Shown here piece by piece: positions 8,755 to 24,590 of a stretch of DNA of 26,044 bases. How positions within the stretch are numbered: the stretch's first letter is position 1; each line of letters begins with the position of its first letter. Under the pieces are notes generated by a model that was given only the letters and a program-made list of their open reading frames with translations, was not told the origin of the DNA and ran no database searches. The DNA lies in IMG/VR virus record IMGVR_UViG_3300044609_000064, positions 1 through 26,044 of that record, one strand, 5' to 3'. A program made the translations under genes and the position numbers. Source of the DNA: a virus (Duplodnaviria > Caudoviricetes).

Positions 8755-11180
8755 CGTGCTACTCCAATGGTCCTACGCAGCGATGGGTTGCTCTGCAGTT
8801 GACTCAGTGCCATATTGGCGCCTTGACGCGCCGCCGTGGATGTTGCCTGCTGCAGGTCACTCATCGTGACGTAGCTTGTGCCGCCCATCTGGGTTACAGG
8901 ACCGGTGGTGATGTTGACTTGCGGCGTTGCCATGCTTGTTCCGGTGCCGATGCCATATTGCTGCATACCGGTAGCCGCTGGGCGGTTGGCGGATGACATG
9001 CCGGGAAGAATGCTGCCGCCACCTTTGAACCAAGATTCTTCAGCATTCTTGCGGCTGTTCTCCCAAAATTGTTTGTTGTAGCTAGTGGCTTGCTCAAAGA
9101 ACCGTTGATTCAGTTCAGCGTATTTGCGCTCAGCTTCTGCAACGCTAACGAACATGCGAGTTTGGTCCATCTGCAGCTTGTTCAGTGCCGCTTCATATGC
9201 AGCCTTAAAAGCAGCATTCTCGCCTGCAGGGCCGAAGTTGTATTGAGCGCCAACTGCGGTGGCGCTTCTCATGCCGACTACGGCACCAGACGTGGCGGAT
9301 GACACTTTTTGCGCCGCCGTTGCAGCTCGTTCCATATTGCTTGCAAACGTGCCTGATGCTGCTGCAGCAGAGCCTGTAGCCTTTGCCACGATATTTTGCT
9401 GATAGGCGGCATCTGCAGCCTGCACCTTGCCATCTCGTACCGCACGAGCGGCGCGTTCTTGTTGCTCTGCGACCACTGCAACTGTGCCGCCTTGGATTTT
9501 TGCTAAATCCACAGCCTCTCTGATTGCATCAAGCGCTTTGTAATGCTCAGCGTTGGCAGTGCCTTGCGCTGCAGCTAGACGGACAACAGCCTCTACCTCT
9601 TTGGCTTTTTGCTCAGCGGAAACAACCGCCAGCCTTGCTTTCTCTACCTCAGCAGCAATTTGCGCCTGCGTTGCCTGCAGCTCAAGCTCAGCTTGCCTGA
9701 CAGTGATGTCATAGATATCTTTTGCTGCCTTGACTCGCTGCGTTTGGTTTTGTGCGTTATCAAGCTGACGTTGCGCCTGTTGAAGCAGCACGTCATTGAT
9801 CTGCATCTCAGCCTGCAGATAAGCCTGCGTGATCGAAGCGCGTTGTCCAGCTACAGCGTCAACGACTTTGGCGGAAGCATCAGCAGCTTGGCTGGCTTCC
9901 TGAATTGCCTTGGTGACGGCTTGCTGCTCCTCCTTCAGTTTTTTTGCTGCTTCTTTTGCGTCGTCAATCTTAGGTGGCAAGCTGGAATAGTTCTTGACTG
10001 ATTCGGCTGCTGCCTCATTGACTTTTTGCTGCTCTTCCTTAAACTTGCCAACCTTGTCATTGGTCAGCCCTAGGAAGTTGGCAAGGCGCCCAACCTGCTC
10101 AGCAATGAATTGAAAGACAGGATTCTGCGATAGCGCCTTGAAGCTATCAATGACAAATGCAAGAACCTTCGAGAAATTGCTAATGACAACAATGGCATTC
10201 TCAAAACCCTTGATCATGATGCTTTGAATCGCTACGCGAATAGCGTCAAAGTCAATGTCTTTGAATGCTGCCTGCAGTGATGCAATGACGGGTTGGATTG
10301 CCTCGTAGACCTTGGGAAAGATTACATTCCCCAAATAGCTCCACCAGTCAGCAAGCATCTGGCCGACAGTGGCCAGTCCTTGAGCGCCAGCAACAACAGC
10401 AGGTGCAAACACCTGGCCAATGCTGTTGAGCAGTTGATCCGTAACCTGCCGCAGGTTGTTGAAGGTCTGTTGCTGTGCGGTCAGCTTGCCATTTAGGTTC
10501 TCGGACGCCGCCGCAGCGCCAGACAATGCCTCGTACAAGACCTGGCTTGTGATCTTGCCGTCTTGAGCCATGCCTTGTAGCTCGCCGCGGCTCTTGCCGG
10601 TGGTTTGCGCAATCGCATCAAGCAACTGCGGCATTCGTTCAGCGACAATGACAAACTCATCGCCATTCAGCTTGCCTTTGCCAAGCGCTTGGCTCAGTTG
10701 GAAAAATGCTCCAGCCGCTTCTTCACCAGCAAGGCCGGACTGCAGTGCAATGGCATTGAAGCCTTGATAGATCTGGCCGGTCTCTTGTAGGCCAAAGCCA
10801 ACGCCCTTTAATCGGCTGTAAACATCGGCCAGCGCTTTGGTTGATTCTGTTTGCGTCAGTCCAAATTTTGCCGACGAATCAGCCGCCAGTGCCATTGCTG
10901 CGTTGAATTCATCCGTGCTGCTGGTGAGATTACGCAGCCGCTGCTCTGCAGCACCACGTTCGAATGCAACATCCAAGCCAGCCTTGACGGCAGTCAATGC
11001 TGTTGTGATCGTCAGCAGCGGACCAAGCGCAGCTTGCAATGCACCACCTAATCCCTTTGCGCCTGTTGCCGCTGAGTTAAAGCCGCCTTGTACGTCAGTG
11101 GCAGCAGTCTTAACGCGGTTGAGCTGCTGGATTGCGTTGGCGGCATCAACGTTAATCGCAACATTTGCTACGACTGACAT
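8751..11180 (-). CDS. Tape measure protein
   Basis: 809 aa, Ala/Gln-rich helical. N-terminal motif QLSQALGKGKLNGDEFVIVAERMPQLLDAIA...GELQGMAQDGKITS. Follows the tail chaperone. Confidence 0.95.
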   Translation of the reverse strand: MSVVANVAINVDAANAIQQLNRVKTAATDVQGGFNSAATGAKGLGGALQAALGPLLTITTALTAVKAGLDVAFERGAAEQRLRNLTSSTDEFNAAMALAADSSAKFGLTQTESTKALADVYSRLKGVGFGLQETGQIYQGFNAIALQSGLAGEEAAGAFFQLSQALGKGKLNGDEFVIVAERMPQLLDAIAQTTGKSRGELQGMAQDGKITSQVLYEALSGAAAASENLNGKLTAQQQTFNNLRQVTDQLLNSIGQVFAPAVVAGAQGLATVGQMLADWWSYLGNVIFPKVYEAIQPVIASLQAAFKDIDFDAIRVAIQSIMIKGFENAIVVISNFSKVLAFVIDSFKALSQNPVFQFIAEQVGRLANFLGLTNDKVGKFKEEQQKVNEAAAESVKNYSSLPPKIDDAKEAAKKLKEEQQAVTKAIQEASQAADASAKVVDAVAGQRASITQAYLQAEMQINDVLLQQAQRQLDNAQNQTQRVKAAKDIYDITVRQAELELQATQAQIAAEVEKARLAVVSAEQKAKEVEAVVRLAAAQGTANAEHYKALDAIREAVDLAKIQGGTVAVVAEQQERAARAVRDGKVQAADAAYQQNIVAKATGSAAAASGTFASNMERAATAAQKVSSATSGAVVGMRSATAVGAQYNFGPAGENAAFKAAYEAALNKLQMDQTRMFVSVAEAERKYAELNQRFFEQATSYNKQFWENSRKNAEESWFKGGGSILPGMSSANRPAATGMQQYGIGTGTSMATPQVNITTGPVTQMGGTSYVTMSDLQQATSTAARQGANMALSQLQSNPSLRRTIGVAR

Positions 11181-11198: not shown

Positions 11199-11390
11199 TT
11201 ACATTCTACGCCGACTAGCCTTTTGGCTTGCCTCTTCCGCTTCTTGGTATTCGACTTGATACATCAAACCCCAGAGCTGCAGCTCCTCGTAGGTGAGTCG
11301 TTCTGATAGCTCCAACAGCGTGTATCCAAGATCTCTGGCTAAGCGCATCATCAGCCGCAGCAGATGATCCTGTTTAACCAGCTTGATCAG
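11199..11390 (-). CDS. Tail assembly chaperone -1 frame extension (gpT-like part of gpGT)
   Basis: Not in the ORF track. The -1 frame after the slippery site reads LIKLVKQDHLLRLMMRLARDLGYTLLELSERLTYEELQLWGLMYQVEYQEAEEASQKASRRRM* and fills the gap before the tape measure gene. Confidence 0.85.
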   Translation of the reverse strand: MIKLVKQDHLLRLMMRLARDLGYTLLELSERLTYEELQLWGLMYQVEYQEAEEASQKASRRRM

Positions 11391-11743
11391 TTTTTTGCGT
11401 CGACCTCTTCCGCATCATGCTTGTCGGTCAGCACGGCAAGCATCAGTTCTTGCAGATCCGAATCACGTACCTCATTCTTCAGTTCTGCAATCTCGCCAGC
11501 GCGGAACAGCGGGCGGCCGGTTTCATCCAAAGCTTTGGACACCAAAAGCTGCAGGGCGAATGCCGTTGCCTCATCTGAGCCGGCATCCTTCTGCGCCCGC
11601 TCTCGTTCAGCCATGGTCAGCGGCTTGCAGTAAAACTCAAACACGTCGCCATCGCTCAGCTCAACCTGCTTTTTGATTGGCGTCAGGTTGGCTGCTTTTT
11701 TGAGGCGATCAAGCGCGCGCATGGATGAATTGGCAGGCGCCAT
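11387..11743 (-). CDS. Tail assembly chaperone (gpG-like)
   Basis: 118 aa, between the major tail protein and tape measure genes. Contains KPLTMAERE and KALDETGRPLF, and ends in the slippery sequence. Confidence 0.9.
   Translation of the reverse strand: MAPANSSMRALDRLKKAANLTPIKKQVELSDGDVFEFYCKPLTMAERERAQKDAGSDEATAFALQLLVSKALDETGRPLFRAGEIAELKNEVRDSDLQELMLAVLTDKHDAEEVDAKN
11390..11396 (-). other. Programmed -1 ribosomal frameshift site A AAA AAC
   Basis: mRNA GCA AAA AAC UGA, an X XXY YYZ heptamer immediately before the chaperone stop codon. Confidence 0.85.
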
Positions 11744-15144: not shown

Positions 15145-16173
15145 TCAATCAAAGTTAGAGGTGTTGGTGGCGCGCACAATGCCGAGGTTCTTCAGCTCGT
15201 ACACCTTCGACCAGTTAGCAACAGTCTCCAGCTGAGCGCGAGTGGGGTTGGCGGTAGTCACCGCCCACTTAGCTCCAACAGGGTGGTAGCAATAGTGCAG
15301 GTCGATCGACATGGCATCGCTCTTGGCGAGGATGTCACGATCGGTTTCGGTCTGCATCGCCATTTGCTCACCACTGGCAACAGCGCCTTGGGTGAAGAAA
15401 TAGGTGGCGTACTCAGTTGAAGAACCGCTGCCATCGGTCTGCACATCGTCAGACACGATCACGCGCAGACCCATGTAGGTCGGCACGCTTACTTCGCCGC
15501 CATAGGCGGCAACCAGCGAGCCGCCAGATTGGGTGGTGCTAGTGCCACGGGCCTCAGCAGTCGACACATAGTCGATTGCCTTGCGCTCAACGAGGTCGTA
15601 ATAGACCTTGGAGTGCATGGCAACAGCAGCCAGCTTGTCGCCTTGATCGCCCAGCAGGCTGCGGGCTTCGGCAACGTGACGAGGGCTCAGCGTGGTGGGA
15701 GTATCGCCAGACTCGCCATCAATGGTCAGACCAAAGAAGGCAGCAGAGCTGGAGGTAGATCCCAGGCTGCCGAACACGCCGCCAAGGCAGGACAGCAGAT
15801 CCTTTTGGCGCTGGTTAGCGATGTAATCAGCGATCTTGGCGCCAATGGCGGCCATGGGATCAGAACCGGCAGCAAGGGCAGCCAGGTCGCGAGCCTCGAA
15901 GGCGCGGCCACGGTGCAGGATCACGCCGACTTGCTTGTCAGCAGTGATTTTGCCAGGAGTGAGGCTGCTGCTATCAGTCAGAACCTCGAAATCGCCGGAA
16001 AGGTTGGCTTTCCAGAATGGAACATTGATGAAATCACCGCCCTCGGTGGCATTTAGCTCCGCCAGAGGCTGCACCACACCGGAAGCCAGGAAGGCATCAC
16101 GCTGAGTGGTTTGCTCAATGACGTAAGGCGTAAATACCTCGGGGATGATGATGTCAGAGCGAAGGGTCGCCAT
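15145..16173 (-). CDS. Major capsid protein
   Basis: 342 aa. TLRSDIIIPEVFTPYV, GGDFINVPFWKANLSGD, AGSDPMAAIG, VAMHSKVY, TYMGLRVIVSDD, ETDRDIL, HPVGAKW. GAGG SD. Confidence 0.95.
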   Translation of the reverse strand: MATLRSDIIIPEVFTPYVIEQTTQRDAFLASGVVQPLAELNATEGGDFINVPFWKANLSGDFEVLTDSSSLTPGKITADKQVGVILHRGRAFEARDLAALAAGSDPMAAIGAKIADYIANQRQKDLLSCLGGVFGSLGSTSSSAAFFGLTIDGESGDTPTTLSPRHVAEARSLLGDQGDKLAAVAMHSKVYYDLVERKAIDYVSTAEARGTSTTQSGGSLVAAYGGEVSVPTYMGLRVIVSDDVQTDGSGSSTEYATYFFTQGAVASGEQMAMQTETDRDILAKSDAMSIDLHYCYHPVGAKWAVTTANPTRAQLETVANWSKVYELKNLGIVRATNTSNFD

Positions 16174-16203
16174 GACTAATCCTCAAAAAGGGTTTACGGA
16201 TGT

Positions 16204-16236
16204 GGGCGCAGCCCTAGGCTCTATGTGGCGCAGCCA
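16204..16236 (-). promoter_or_regulatory. Tandem C-UGC-G hairpins in the capsid mRNA leader
   Basis: TGGC-TGC-GCCA (16226-16236) and GGGC-TGC-GCCC (16204-16214). Confidence 0.6.
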
Positions 16237-16257
16237 TCACGAGCAGACACTCAAATA

Positions 16258-16935
16258 CTAACGGTTGGCTGCTGCTTTCATCCGATCGTATAGATCACGA
16301 TCTGTGCGGAACAACCGCGACTGCTCAGTGAGATTGAATGTCTCGCGGCTGAATGGATTAGCCATGCCTGATGGGATGGCACCATTGCTGCCGCCGGTCG
16401 GCGCACCGCTGCCTTGCGGCTTGGGTTGCTTTTGCATCCATGCAGGCAACGTCTTGGCCCATTCGCCGACGGGCGTGCGCTGGTAGCCGTCGACTACGAC
16501 GACAGTGCCATCTGCTTCACGCTGGATTGCGTCAGGCGACAGCTTGGTCTTAAGCACAAGATCAGGATCGTGCACGATCTCAGCCAGTGCTGTCACTGCT
16601 GGTGTGACCAGTTCCAGCTCGCGGACGCGTGACTCAAGCTCTGAAATGCGCTTGTCCTTCTCCGCCGTCGCCTCACGGAACTGGTGCTCCAAAGCCTGCC
16701 GTGCCTCTTGGTATTTACCTTGGGATTCAAGCTGCTGTTGCTCGTAGTTGCGCTTGAACTCCAGCAGTTCATCAACATTGACTCCATCCGGCAGCTTTGG
16801 AGCTTTGGATTTGGCTTGACGCAGCTCTGCAATCAATTCTTGATTCTTGCGTTCTAGCGCTTCAACACTGCGCTGCAGTGCATCGGCATCAGTCCCAGTA
16901 GCCGCAGGCTCTTGGGTTTGTTGTTCATCAGACAT
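16258..16935 (-). CDS. Capsid scaffolding protein
   Basis: 225 aa, acidic coiled-coil (ALERKNQELIAEL; QGKYQE), PQGSGA linker and NPF...NLTEQ C-terminus. Immediately upstream of the capsid gene. Confidence 0.85.
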   Translation of the reverse strand: MSDEQQTQEPAATGTDADALQRSVEALERKNQELIAELRQAKSKAPKLPDGVNVDELLEFKRNYEQQQLESQGKYQEARQALEHQFREATAEKDKRISELESRVRELELVTPAVTALAEIVHDPDLVLKTKLSPDAIQREADGTVVVVDGYQRTPVGEWAKTLPAWMQKQPKPQGSGAPTGGSNGAIPSGMANPFSRETFNLTEQSRLFRTDRDLYDRMKAAANR

Positions 16936-16953
16936 GGATAAGCCGCAGGCTTA
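16900..16953 (-). promoter_or_regulatory. C-UGC-G hairpins flanking the scaffold start codon
   Basis: TAAGCC-TGC-GGCTTA (16939-16953), 3 nt before the ATG, and AGCC-TGC-GGCT (16900-16910) in codons 9-12. Confidence 0.6.
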
Positions 16954-16967
16954 ATTACACTTCTACG

Positions 16968-17243
16968 TTACCACTTCTCCTTGTCAGCCCAATACGCGGC
17001 AGACATTTTCCCTTTGGCTATGTTCTTGGCATGTCGAGCCTTGAACGATGCCCTTCTGGCTTTGTCCGCTGCTGATTCTCCTTTTTGTGGTGCTGAGCCA
17101 GATACGCCCTGCTGACCAAAACGAATAAGCTTGACCTTGTCGCCTTCCTTGGCAAGCACGGCATGTGACTTGTTCGGATGCTTTGGCGTGCGCTTCGGCT
17201 TGTTGTAGCCGTCAAACTGCTCGCCGCGGTAGGTGATGCTCAT
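16968..17243 (-). CDS. Small basic hypothetical protein
   Basis: 91 aa, Lys/Arg-rich. GYNKPKRTP, KLIRFGQQG, ARRASFKARH, SAAYWA. ATGA-coupled. Confidence 0.8.
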   Translation of the reverse strand: MSITYRGEQFDGYNKPKRTPKHPNKSHAVLAKEGDKVKLIRFGQQGVSGSAPQKGESAADKARRASFKARHAKNIAKGKMSAAYWADKEKW

Positions 17244-17461
17244 CGCCGTGGTGCACGCTGCAATTCAGAACGCTTTTTGATCACTGCGTTGCCGGTTGAT
17301 TCCGATTTGATGCGCACGATCGGATCATCTTGACTGCCAACGCGGGTGACGCTACCGCCGCCTTGCGTGGGGATGGTTGCACGCTCACCGCCAATGCCTG
17401 TGATGACGCCAAATGTGCGCGTGCCTTGATACATCCAACTAACGCGATCACCGCGTTTCAT
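17240..17461 (-). CDS. Tudor-like (Hva1/DUF2945-like) small protein
   Basis: 73 aa. GDRVSW...G.I...TRVGSQDDPIVRIKSESTGNAVIKKRSEL resembles the DUF2945/Hva1 Tudor pattern. ATGA-coupled. Confidence 0.65.
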   Translation of the reverse strand: MKRGDRVSWMYQGTRTFGVITGIGGERATIPTQGGGSVTRVGSQDDPIVRIKSESTGNAVIKKRSELQRAPRR

Positions 17462-17628
17462 TTCTTCTTACCCTTGCGAGCTTTGCCAGCTTCAGATAGG
17501 GCAATTGCTATTGCCTGCTTGCGGCTTTTTACCTTTGGACCCTTGCCTGGTCCGGGTTTGCCGCTTTGCAGTGTCCCGCGCTTGTACTCGCCCATCACCT
17601 TGGCGATCTTGTCCTTCTTCTTCGCCAT
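17458..17628 (-). CDS. Small basic DUF6496-like protein
   Basis: MAKKKDKIAKVMGEYKRGTLQSG...KVKSRKQAIAIALSEAG. ATG at 17628 preferred over the TTG at 17643. Confidence 0.75.
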   Translation of the reverse strand: MAKKKDKIAKVMGEYKRGTLQSGKPGPGKGPKVKSRKQAIAIALSEAGKARKGKKK

Positions 17629-17797
17629 AGCGCCATTCCTCAATACCTGTTAACAGTGTAGAGCCGTCAGCTGTTGCCCAGCCCTTGTCGGTGTAGATAG
17701 CTGGCACCCATGCCTCGCCATGCAGTGCTTCTACGGGATCACTTGAGATGCAGTAGATGCCAGCATTTTGAAAATGCCGCAGACTAGGCAGGTCCAT
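17492..17797 (-). CDS. Hypothetical protein (C-terminal part overlaps the next gene)
   Basis: Fills the gap after the minor head gene. The first ~56 aa look globular (SDPVEAL...WVPAIYTDKGWATADG...IEEWR). Confidence 0.55.
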   Translation of the reverse strand: MDLPSLRHFQNAGIYCISSDPVEALHGEAWVPAIYTDKGWATADGSTLLTGIEEWRYGEEEGQDRQGDGRVQARDTAKRQTRTRQGSKGKKPQAGNSNCPI

Positions 17798-18974
17798 ATC
17801 GTGCGCGGAGCTGATCTAATGTTAACTCTGAGCCATCATCGCGGACTAACTTAGCGACGGCATCAGTCGGGCCATACTTATCGGCAAGGCGATTGAAGTA
17901 CGGCACTTTGTTTGCGCCCAATGCCTTTGCTTTGGTCTCAAGGTCTTGCTTTGCTAGCCAGTCGCCGTATGAGACATCTGCCGGCACCTGACCACCTGCT
18001 GATGCACGCTTTGCCGGTGCTGGTGGGATGAAACCTAGCTCGTCGTAGTCGATCACCGGCACCGTCGTGCTGCGGCAGTTGAAGTGCTGCGGCGGAGTCG
18101 GGCCTTTGCCGTATTCAAACTCACGACCATCCAATGCACGGCAAATGCTGCTGGTGCGGGTATCCAGTGTTGCCACATAGCGATACTTCTTAGTGATGTC
18201 TTGATTAGCCTCGTATACCTGCTGACTGGCTGCATTGGCAACTTGATTGATACTTGTGCGGACAAGGGTGACGATTTGGTTGTCTGCGACTGCCGTTGCC
18301 TGGCCGCCTGCTGCGACCAGTTGCTTCACGGTCTTGGCTTCTTCGCCAAATTCAAGATTGCCAACCAGCCGCTTAGCGATAGCTGGTGTTGGCTCACCAG
18401 TCAGCAATCCTTGCCGCACAACCTGCGAAAACCGCTCAGCCTGGTCAACGGCGATGCCGCGAAATGCCTTGGTGACCACTTCGCCATTGGGTAATGTGAT
18501 CGTGGCGCCTTGCGCTGCAGTGAGGCTGTAGGTCTGCGGTGAGCCGTACGCTGCGGCGAACAAATCATCGCTCAAGGTCACCACATTGATTTGCGTTGGA
18601 TCGGTGGTCACCACTGACTGCGCAAATTGCGGACTGATCTCAACGGTGCGCACTGCATCACGTGCACCTGCTGGCAATGCGCGGCGCAGTTGATCGACGA
18701 CAAACTCAGATTGCAGCTCTGCAATGCCTTGCAGTTCTAATGCCGTCAGCTCTGTTGCATCACCTGCCCATGTTGCCAAGCTGTCCTTGAGTTGTGCAAG
18801 AATTGCACGCAGTCGTGCTGCTTTAACTGGTGCCGCTAGATCATCAATGGTGCGCAGTTGATTAGCAGCATCAACGATGATGTCGTTGTAGGCATTGATG
18901 ACACGCCGCGCAACGCTATTGCTGTAGCGGTTTAGATCAATCGCATTGCGATATAGCGCTTCTGGAGTGCTCAT
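17784..18974 (-). CDS. Minor head / head morphogenesis protein (SPP1 gp7, Mu gpF family)
   Basis: YRYVATLDTRTSSICRALDG...PPQHFNCRST motif, downstream of the portal. Confidence 0.92.
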   Translation of the reverse strand: MSTPEALYRNAIDLNRYSNSVARRVINAYNDIIVDAANQLRTIDDLAAPVKAARLRAILAQLKDSLATWAGDATELTALELQGIAELQSEFVVDQLRRALPAGARDAVRTVEISPQFAQSVVTTDPTQINVVTLSDDLFAAAYGSPQTYSLTAAQGATITLPNGEVVTKAFRGIAVDQAERFSQVVRQGLLTGEPTPAIAKRLVGNLEFGEEAKTVKQLVAAGGQATAVADNQIVTLVRTSINQVANAASQQVYEANQDITKKYRYVATLDTRTSSICRALDGREFEYGKGPTPPQHFNCRSTTVPVIDYDELGFIPPAPAKRASAGGQVPADVSYGDWLAKQDLETKAKALGANKVPYFNRLADKYGPTDAVAKLVRDDGSELTLDQLRARYGPA

Positions 18975-23549: not shown

Positions 23550-24590
23550 TTAGCCCTTGATTTGCACAGGCATTACAAGATACGTTACACCGTCCACTGC
23601 ATCAGGTGTCAATACCACGGGAGTGGTTGCCGTATTGGCGTGCAGTGTAATGGCTTCTGCGGGCTTGAACGCCTTGATGCCGTCTAGCAGGTAGTGGACA
23701 TTAAACGCCCATGCGCCAGTGGCAGCGCCTTCTACGGCTAGCAGCTCGCGGCCATTGTTGGCATCGGCTTCTGCGCTGATCTCAAGGCCACCACTGCCGG
23801 CGGTGAGCTTGACGATGGAGTTGTGCGCATCGGCAATGATGGCGACACGCTCTAGTGCGCGCGTCAGGCGGCGCCGGTCGGCGGTGATGGTGTGCTTGAA
23901 ATCACCGGGTACCAGCTTGGCCACGTCTGGGTAGGTGCCATCCATGATGCGGCTGTAGATGGTGATGCCATCGCCTGCGTCAATCACGGCTTGCCCTTTG
24001 GCAACGGCAATGGTGACCACGCGGTCTTGCAGCAGGCGCATGGTGCTGGCTGGTAGCACGATGTCTAAGCCATCTGGCAGGTCAATGGCGTAACGCATGA
24101 GGCGATGGCCATCTGTGGCTTCCATGTGGCCATTGCCGAGATGGATGCCTTGAAGCATCTGCTTGCTGGCGTCGGTGCTGGCAGCTGCCATGCAGGCGCG
24201 GATGCCGGCGGATAGGTGCAGCTCGCTCGTGGCGGCGTCTACAACCGGCAGCGCGGGGTAATCCGCCGCATCAGCCGCTGCAAGCCCGTAGGAGCCCGCA
24301 GAAGCCGTCAGAGCACCATCTGCGAGGGCCAGAGCCTCATCGCCCTCAAAGCGGCTTACAAGCCCAGCCAGCAGCCGATACGGCAGCGCTACAGCGCCAT
24401 CGGTCTCAACTGCAGCGGGAATGGTGACGGTGATGCCGAGATCAAGGTTGAAGCCGGTGATGGTCATGACACCACCAGCGGCTTGGATCAGGCAGCAATC
24501 AAGTATTGGGTGCGAACTGCGATGGCCAACAGCGGGCGCAATGGTGCGCAACGCGTGATCGAGATCGGCTTGGCAGGTAACGGCTTTCAT
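23550..24590 (-). CDS. dnaN: DNA polymerase III beta sliding clamp
   Basis: SHPIL, GFNLDLGI, DYPALP, ATDGHRL, GTYPDV, ALERVAI, AFNVHYLLDG, YLVMPVQI. Confidence 0.93.
   Translation of the reverse strand: MKAVTCQADLDHALRTIAPAVGHRSSHPILDCCLIQAAGGVMTITGFNLDLGITVTIPAAVETDGAVALPYRLLAGLVSRFEGDEALALADGALTASAGSYGLAAADAADYPALPVVDAATSELHLSAGIRACMAAASTDASKQMLQGIHLGNGHMEATDGHRLMRYAIDLPDGLDIVLPASTMRLLQDRVVTIAVAKGQAVIDAGDGITIYSRIMDGTYPDVAKLVPGDFKHTITADRRRLTRALERVAIIADAHNSIVKLTAGSGGLEISAEADANNGRELLAVEGAATGAWAFNVHYLLDGIKAFKPAEAITLHANTATTPVVLTPDAVDGVTYLVMPVQIKG

Follow-up and report, generated by a model that had tools for sequence, protein, structure and literature searches.

Loop-matched RNA hairpins at the scaffold and capsid genes of cyanophages covary with the scaffolding protein, their likely reader

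Wyckoff and Casjens reportedly described in 1985 that the scaffolding protein of phage P22 is autoregulated, and the way a scaffold controls its own synthesis has been a standing question since that work. According to the available part of a later source, the control of P22 scaffold gene 8 is post-transcriptional and the scaffold N-terminus is implicated (10.1101/2022.12.13.520362); our literature search found no defined RNA target or code for this protein. GP20-a (RF02991), GP20-b (RF03003) and six further candidate RNAs lie upstream of GP20 genes, and the accessible part of the source calls GP20 a gene of unknown function and names no reader (PMC10690425). GP20-b matches the leader of a Firmicutes phage PF06810 scaffold gene; the available main text of PMC5737381 does not mention GP20. 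Aca2 acts as a translational repressor by binding, as a dimer, to two hairpins of its own 5′ UTR, and for Aca10 and Aca12 the portion of that source at hand reports no protein-RNA co-evolution (PMC13551039).

The stretch analysed here, referred to as the window, is a partial phage genome of 26,044 nucleotides with an SPP1-like head module on its minus strand, in the order terminase, portal, gp7-like protein, three small genes, scaffold and capsid. Its nearest cultured relatives are the cyanosiphoviruses KBS-S-2A, S-H1, MED4-184 and MED4-117 (scaffold 51-73%, capsid 68-91%), and its host is therefore probably a picocyanobacterium. The genes and hairpins under study are as follows.

16258 to 16935, minus strand: head scaffolding protein gene (225 aa; phrog_206, E 2.9e-24; helices in an AlphaFold2 model), product the likely reader
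15145 to 16173, minus strand: major capsid protein gene, SPP1 gp13-like (phrog_247; PF20036; 90.9% to KBS-S-2A)
16968 to 17800, minus strand: small genes before the predicted scaffold promoter, for a phrog_7595 protein, an Hva1-type Tudor protein and a DUF6496 protein
16939 to 16953, minus strand: HP1, a hairpin with a C-UGC-G loop that fills the short scaffold leader
16900 to 16910, minus strand: HP2, a hairpin within scaffold codons 9-12
16223 to 16240 (core 16226 to 16236), minus strand: HP3, the first capsid-leader hairpin, with a bulged A in its lower stem
16204 to 16214, minus strand: HP4, the second capsid-leader hairpin (second and third stem pairs Watson-Crick in all 86 distinct 17-mers)

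The three small genes are patchy in presence and exchanged among relatives, and just upstream of the scaffold leader relatives differ sharply in sequence. Elsewhere on the minus strand, a cyanobacterial AbrB-like regulator (PF14250, 20663-20983) is inserted between the terminase and portal genes, a DNA polymerase III beta-clamp-like gene (phrog_947, 23550-24590) lies shortly before the packaging genes, likewise in S-H1, and a tail chaperone ORF (11199-11743) with a short ORF after it precedes the tape measure gene, the arrangement usual for a programmed frameshift.

As in P22, the head scaffolding protein gene lies upstream of the capsid gene, although the module itself is SPP1-like (phrog_206, Gp13-like). 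With the GP20 motifs the locus shares a structured RNA directly before a phage scaffold gene, and GP20-b too has two hairpins and, in its case, a CGUAAAA word; however, the loops differ from those of GP20-a and GP20-b, neither covariance model matches in the window or in two relatives, and the protein, a scaffold by PHROGs, does not match PF06810. The words of this motif are absent from those supplement files of PMC10690425 that were examined. Like Aca2, the locus combines a phage protein dimer, here a predicted one, with two leader hairpins, but Aca2 is a regulator of the helix-turn-helix type rather than a structural coiled coil. Phage-specific pairing of a protein with a hairpin is also seen in lambdoid N-boxB and in the MS2 coat-operator; the boxB loops of one phage are alike, whereas those of different phages are not. 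The proteins are of other kinds, an arginine-rich antiterminator in the case of N and a beta-sheet dimer in that of MS2 coat, and the likeness is confined to phage-specific pairing, with no homology claimed. Our literature search, whose coverage excluded most subscription journals, turned up neither this motif nor a scaffold-RNA code.

The four hairpins had been picked out by a sequence-only reading of the window, and all four are present. The minus strand carries five C-UGC-G hairpins with at least four Watson-Crick pairs and the plus strand none, against a mean of 1.06 in shuffled windows; none of 300 shuffles reached five or put four within 750 nt, and the clustering is thus beyond chance. 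The fifth hairpin (11024-11036) fits the background and is not part of the system, and over 1.36 Mb of genomes hairpins with a genome's own loop occurred outside the four sites 70 times in sense and 69 times in antisense. Median closing-pair probabilities for the four hairpins are 0.67, 0.96, 0.87 and 0.87. HP1 ends 3 nt before the scaffold AUG, HP2 starts about 25 nt after it, and HP4 lies 34-44 nt upstream of the capsid start. Rfam gave no relevant match in the window or in two relatives. RNA sequencing runs contained relatives only as assembled contigs, which carry no information on transcript starts, strand or level. An imperfect hairpin before the portal gene, which had been listed with the four, is conserved in 0 of 57 portal starts and does not belong to the system.

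Loci of relatives were gathered by scaffold- and capsid-anchored scans (545 rows, window included). The four hairpins are conserved in KBS-S-2A/MED4-184-like cyanophages, where their stems vary by compensatory and, on the mRNA strand, G·U changes, and the expectation that homologous leaders would keep them with covariation was borne out: for HP1, in 24 hand-picked sequences, 99.2% of cells are paired with 16 double-sided changes (0 of 500 shuffles). Anchored on the loop, with pairing not required, stem pairs 1-3 are almost all paired and use several pair types, and on the mRNA strand G·U pairs number 35 and A·C only 11. The G of the closing pair is fixed, its partner being C or U, and the HP2 stem is kept although the changes in it alter scaffold residues (EPAA, ESAA, ESAT). 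The hairpins are a real, uncatalogued RNA element; covariation supports their formation on the mRNA strand, and protein binding is predicted. The capsid-leader pair is the constant part, and the scaffold-side pair has been lost in several lineages: 27 of 173 loci (seven changes on the tree) have no scaffold-side hairpin and retain the capsid pair together with the code described below. This persistence marks the capsid pair as the core function.

The loop had been taken to be invariant, but it is constant only within a genome and varies as Y-YRY-G across relatives. Five loops were found (UGC, UGU, UAC, UAU and CGU), and all sites of one genome switch together. Of 245 distinct scaffolds, 239 have the same loop in HP1 and HP4 (mean of permutations 92, maximum 112), and a single loop is used throughout in 211 of the 293 distinct scaffolds for which all four regions are present (128 UGC, 42 UGU, 33 UAC, 4 CGU, 4 UAU). 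The remainder comprises 52 without both scaffold-side hairpins but with a matching capsid pair, 7 with no hairpins, and 23 that are partial or mixed. Single hairpins deviate in L167, L454, L191, L444, L458 and L410, and four Prochlorococcus-group loci (L149, L153, L156, L165) have, by eye, a different zipper and different capsid-leader loops. An AGC "variant" at 16866-16880 had also been counted with the element, to which it does not belong; at least four pairs form in 61 of 78 loci of the UGC type, in none of the 54 with UGU and in 2 of the 35 with UAC. It is thus nearly confined to the UGC type, as expected for a by-product of the L-Q-R-S codons found there.

The loop letters follow a small set of residues in one helix of the scaffold N-terminus:

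16819 to 16878, minus strand: scaffold residues 20-39, a leucine-zipper-like helix with code residues S23, E28, Q32, A36 and E37 around conserved R29-K30-N31

The code was read from 263 loci with complete scaffold and capsid, dereplicated to 176 and then reduced to 173 by dropping three without a clear type. The first loop letter is U with a non-basic residue 36 and C with K or R36, the three CGU loci of the 173 having K36. The second is G with E or D37 (135 loci) and A with K37 plus G36 (38 loci), and the third is C with S, R or N23 plus E or D28 (113 loci) and U with E, Q or D23 plus R, K, L or N28, mostly R28 (60 loci). The UAU types combine K37 with an acidic residue 23. Over the 173 loci, U is 1.00 at residues 36 and 37 for letter 2 and at residues 23 and 28 for letter 3, and the best capsid column reaches 0.27 or less. 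Codons at the code positions vary synonymously, so that the signal lies at the protein level.

With HP4 as the sole label the residue peak is kept, and scaffold residues 60-225 reach 0.34 at most; HP4 thus tracks a zipper about 550 nt away, across a scaffold body without signal. Phylogenetically independent pairs changed in the same direction in 10 of 10 and 13 of 14 cases by the scaffold-body tree; by the capsid tree the figures are 16 of 16 and 21-22 of 22. No pair ran the opposite way on either; both are FastTree trees, whose support values deserve less trust. A three-residue rule predicts the loop letters in 292 of 296 scaffolds, with HP4 right in 161 of 162 training scaffolds and in 131 of 134 others, which are relatives and not independent of the training set. 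The four misses are L227, L699, L421 and L675, the last having R36 and being missed only by a strict K rule. In L227 and L699 the zipper and scaffold hairpins are of one type and the capsid leader of another; these natural mismatches reflect either recombination, perhaps recent, or chimeric assembly. When HP1 loops beginning with C were sought, 29 contigs came back, every one a CGU scaffold start (4 already in the collection, 11 duplicates, 3 too short), with K36 in 24 and R36 in 2 of 26 readable zippers and CGU in 23 of 24 readable capsid leaders. L675 and L693 carry a CGU-type scaffold and CGU capsid-leader hairpins before a capsid gene with a different N-terminus, and the system can therefore survive capsid exchange.

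Linkage, mutation bias or pairing of the loops with the mRNA could in principle produce such a correlation without any protein reading, since no more than 100 nt separate HP1 and HP2 from the codons of the zipper, and 74 of 78 UGC loci have the complement of their loop somewhere in codons 15-50. This reading is scarcely credible. The complement of the own loop is found in only 5 of 54 UGU, 2 of 35 UAC and 0 of 6 UAU/CGU loci, and background pentamer frequencies are independent of loop type; pairing and mutation bias were rejected on these counts. Against linkage stand the passage of the HP4 signal across 550 uncorrelated nucleotides and its behaviour on near-identical leader backbones. Comparison of 228 distinct leaders with the loops masked gave 74 pairs that are at least 88% alike and yet differ in loop, and 62 of the 74 match both zippers (12 of 13 when pairs do not overlap); the leaders of L167 and L208 are identical but for two loop letters. 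The N-terminal block moves as a cassette, with 10 loop-type changes on its own tree versus 38 on that of the scaffold body and 74-85 after shuffling. The code alleles therefore arose few times, and contact residues are inseparable from hitch-hiking passengers. The recurring event is the re-matching of capsid-leader loops.

Two candidate readers had been put forward, the scaffold and the small basic or Tudor proteins encoded just upstream of it, and only the first fits these data. Of the 116 loci that carry scaffold hairpins, 20 have none of the three small genes at a detectable level of similarity, and their best column has U of 0.50 or less. Other genes within about 6 kb reach 0.70 at most (portal and orf114, with 9-10 A-type loci), some genes being scored in few loci. 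Because the loop letters track residues of the scaffold and not those of the capsid or of the neighbours tested, the scaffold is the likely reader, and the covariation makes it very probable that it binds the hairpins directly. Alternatively, the zipper might be a protein-protein surface on which a separate RNA-binding protein, encoded elsewhere in the phage or by the host, docks after reading the loops. Positions 23 and 28 do form a g-e′ pair in the scaffold heptad, a classical determinant of coiled-coil partner choice, and the screen covered genes within about 6 kb only. Such an arrangement would, however, need a third part switching in step, which no scorable neighbouring gene does, and the letter-by-letter, combinable pattern (as in UAU, with K37 and acidic 23) is more simply explained by direct reading; we regard a separate reader as decidedly unlikely.

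An AlphaFold2 model of the scaffold (mean pLDDT 78.5, pTM 0.42) places the code residues in a helix spanning residues 13-44, with two further helices (202-211 and 213-224) at the other end of the protein:

16264 to 16332, minus strand: scaffold C-terminal helix pair (residues 202-224; AlphaFold2), the predicted capsid-binding end by analogy with P22

L20, V24, L27, N31, L34 and L38 follow a heptad pattern that we take to be that of a parallel two-stranded coiled coil. The zipper part alone gives a weak match to bZIP_1, below the cut-off (profile positions 29-59). Foldseek against the PDB found no match for the scaffold, and the hits of a PDB sequence search were weak and confined to generic coiled coils (E 0.008 or worse), so that neither gave a significant solved structure bearing on homology to P22 gp8. 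A dimer prediction for residues 14-110 scored 0.24 against a mark of 0.42, and speaks neither for nor against. Many scaffolds, SPP1's included, form dimers, according to the part of the source available (PMC3185693). In a parallel coiled-coil dimer, g23, e28, b32, f36 and g37 would form one face around K30, and the two symmetric faces of the dimer could take both hairpins of a pair.

The following features surround the hairpins in the two leaders.

16965 to 16973, minus strand: extended -10-like box (TGn-TAnnnT), the predicted scaffold promoter, marked by TAnnnT conservation
16255 to 16260, minus strand: -10-like box TAnnnT overlapping the scaffold stop codon, the predicted capsid promoter, conserved in relatives
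16192 to 16199, minus strand: CGUAAA-type element 3′ of HP4 (GTAAA in 354 of 486 capsid leaders)
16181 to 16184, minus strand: Shine-Dalgarno-like GAGG of the capsid gene, by sequence

TAnnnT begins 22 nt before the closing base of HP1 in 264 of 354 loci, from which we infer a transcript start about 3-4 nt before HP1, and it overlaps 163 of 176 scaffold stops versus 1 of 175 capsid stops. With -10-like boxes ahead of both pairs, each hairpin pair likely lies near the 5′ end of its own transcript. A consensus promoter scan found no full sigma-70 site, and the promoter predictions therefore rest solely on the conserved -10 boxes. A Shine-Dalgarno-like word occurs in 1 of 147 scaffold leaders, with none in that of the window, versus 96 of 147 capsid leaders. 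The CGUAAA-type word resembles the CGUAAAA word of the GP20-b consensus and does not vary with the code.

The position of both pairs after -10-like boxes would also suit elements acting as DNA, either as operators bound by a bZIP-like scaffold or as N4-like GNA mini-hairpins on the template strand, where the window reads C-GCA-G; the residue-base chemistry might equally fit double-stranded DNA. Several observations make this highly improbable. The arms vary with compensation while an asymmetric centre is read, and it is the coding strand that shows the excess of G·U pairs. The template-strand GNA loop of N4-type promoters, present in the window, is broken in the 60 of 173 relatives whose loops end in U, and the annotations of three cultured relatives include no virion RNA polymerase. 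As for bZIP proteins, their basic region before the zipper has no counterpart here, scaffold residues 1-17, where it would lie, being acidic or polar, and the Pfam match covers the zipper only. A variant with a single-stranded DNA hairpin on the coding strand stays within what the data strictly allow.

Taken together, the observations are probably best explained by a scaffold helix that reads the loops, represses its own synthesis at the start-codon pair and likely acts positively at the capsid leader. With HP1 only 3 nt ahead of the AUG and HP2 some 25 nt beyond it, scaffold bound at this bracketing pair would block initiation, and on this arrangement we consider it likely that the scaffold represses its own translation. 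Free scaffold would be the signal, drawn down as procapsids form. At the capsid leader, a positive action might take the form of activation, stabilisation, or tethering of scaffold for co-translational capture of the capsid protein; to such a role we give about an even chance. A positive effect is favoured, since free scaffold acting as a repressor would make any shortage of capsid protein worse. In the absence of scaffold, capsid proteins build aberrant shells, as stated in the available part of PMC3185693. Forcing HP3 and HP4 in folding left the predicted accessibility of the capsid start unchanged (0.31 versus 0.31), so that no simple structural switch is predicted at this start. That result, like the distance of HP4 from the capsid start, would also suit a capsid-leader pair that binds scaffold merely as a sink titrating the free protein, or as a repression site, and does not promote capsid synthesis. 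We think this unlikely; a pure autoregulatory sink fails to explain why loci without a scaffold-side hairpin keep both the capsid pair and the code.

Similar arrangements occur outside this group. Ten distant cultured phages were inspected by eye, and several have tandem same-loop hairpins before the scaffold gene, SE1 (ACGG) and CcrRogue (GGU) repeating the loop in the capsid leader; MAR10 has no tandem same-loop hairpins. Hairpins of this kind stand at the scaffold leaders of L639-L670 (SE1/Nonagvirus group), L558 (CcrRogue), L553, L548 and L550, and wherever there is a capsid leader it repeats the loop (ACGG, AUGG, AUGA, GGU, GAG, UAA, GGAA). A loop shared among leader hairpins was found in 10 of 21 loci of the SE1 group, with 1.6 expected from shuffles (21 selected of 32 fetched, near-duplicates left out), and by eye no residue matching ACGG versus AUGG is evident there. 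SE1-group scaffolds have a conserved zipper-like LEKERNDHK motif. In the phiAH14a family the first loop varies and the zipper is too uniform to test a code.

A wider picture can be offered tentatively, as possible though short of probable. The structural scaffold would read RNA sequence-specifically, through a code from amino acid to base that is modular, can be swapped and lies on one face of a coiled coil, its N-terminus anchored on the capsid mRNA leader to license capsid synthesis or capture it co-translationally. The code would have diversified against cross-regulation between co-infecting relatives, and the same design with other loops would recur in many tailed phages (ACGG/AUGG in the SE1 group, GGU in CcrRogue). 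If true, a link from scaffold to capsid mRNA sets head-protein stoichiometry, a reader is suggested for GP20-type motifs, and coiled coils include an RNA-recognition module with natural orthogonal variants. Now that the sites are named, along with the protein surface that likely reads them and five natural classes of specificity, the mechanism is open to point swaps, and S-H1 and KBS-S-2A on Synechococcus WH7803 are culturable systems.

The comparison with P22 can now be completed. In both, the scaffold N-terminus is implicated, here at residues 23-37 and by covariation only. Unlike P22, this group has defined tandem hairpins, with the same sites in the capsid leader, where they are the constant ones, and a residue-to-base code that differs between relatives. 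With the scaffold as its likely reader, the system would work like the scaffold autoregulation of P22, to which it would add control of the capsid message and a modular specificity code.
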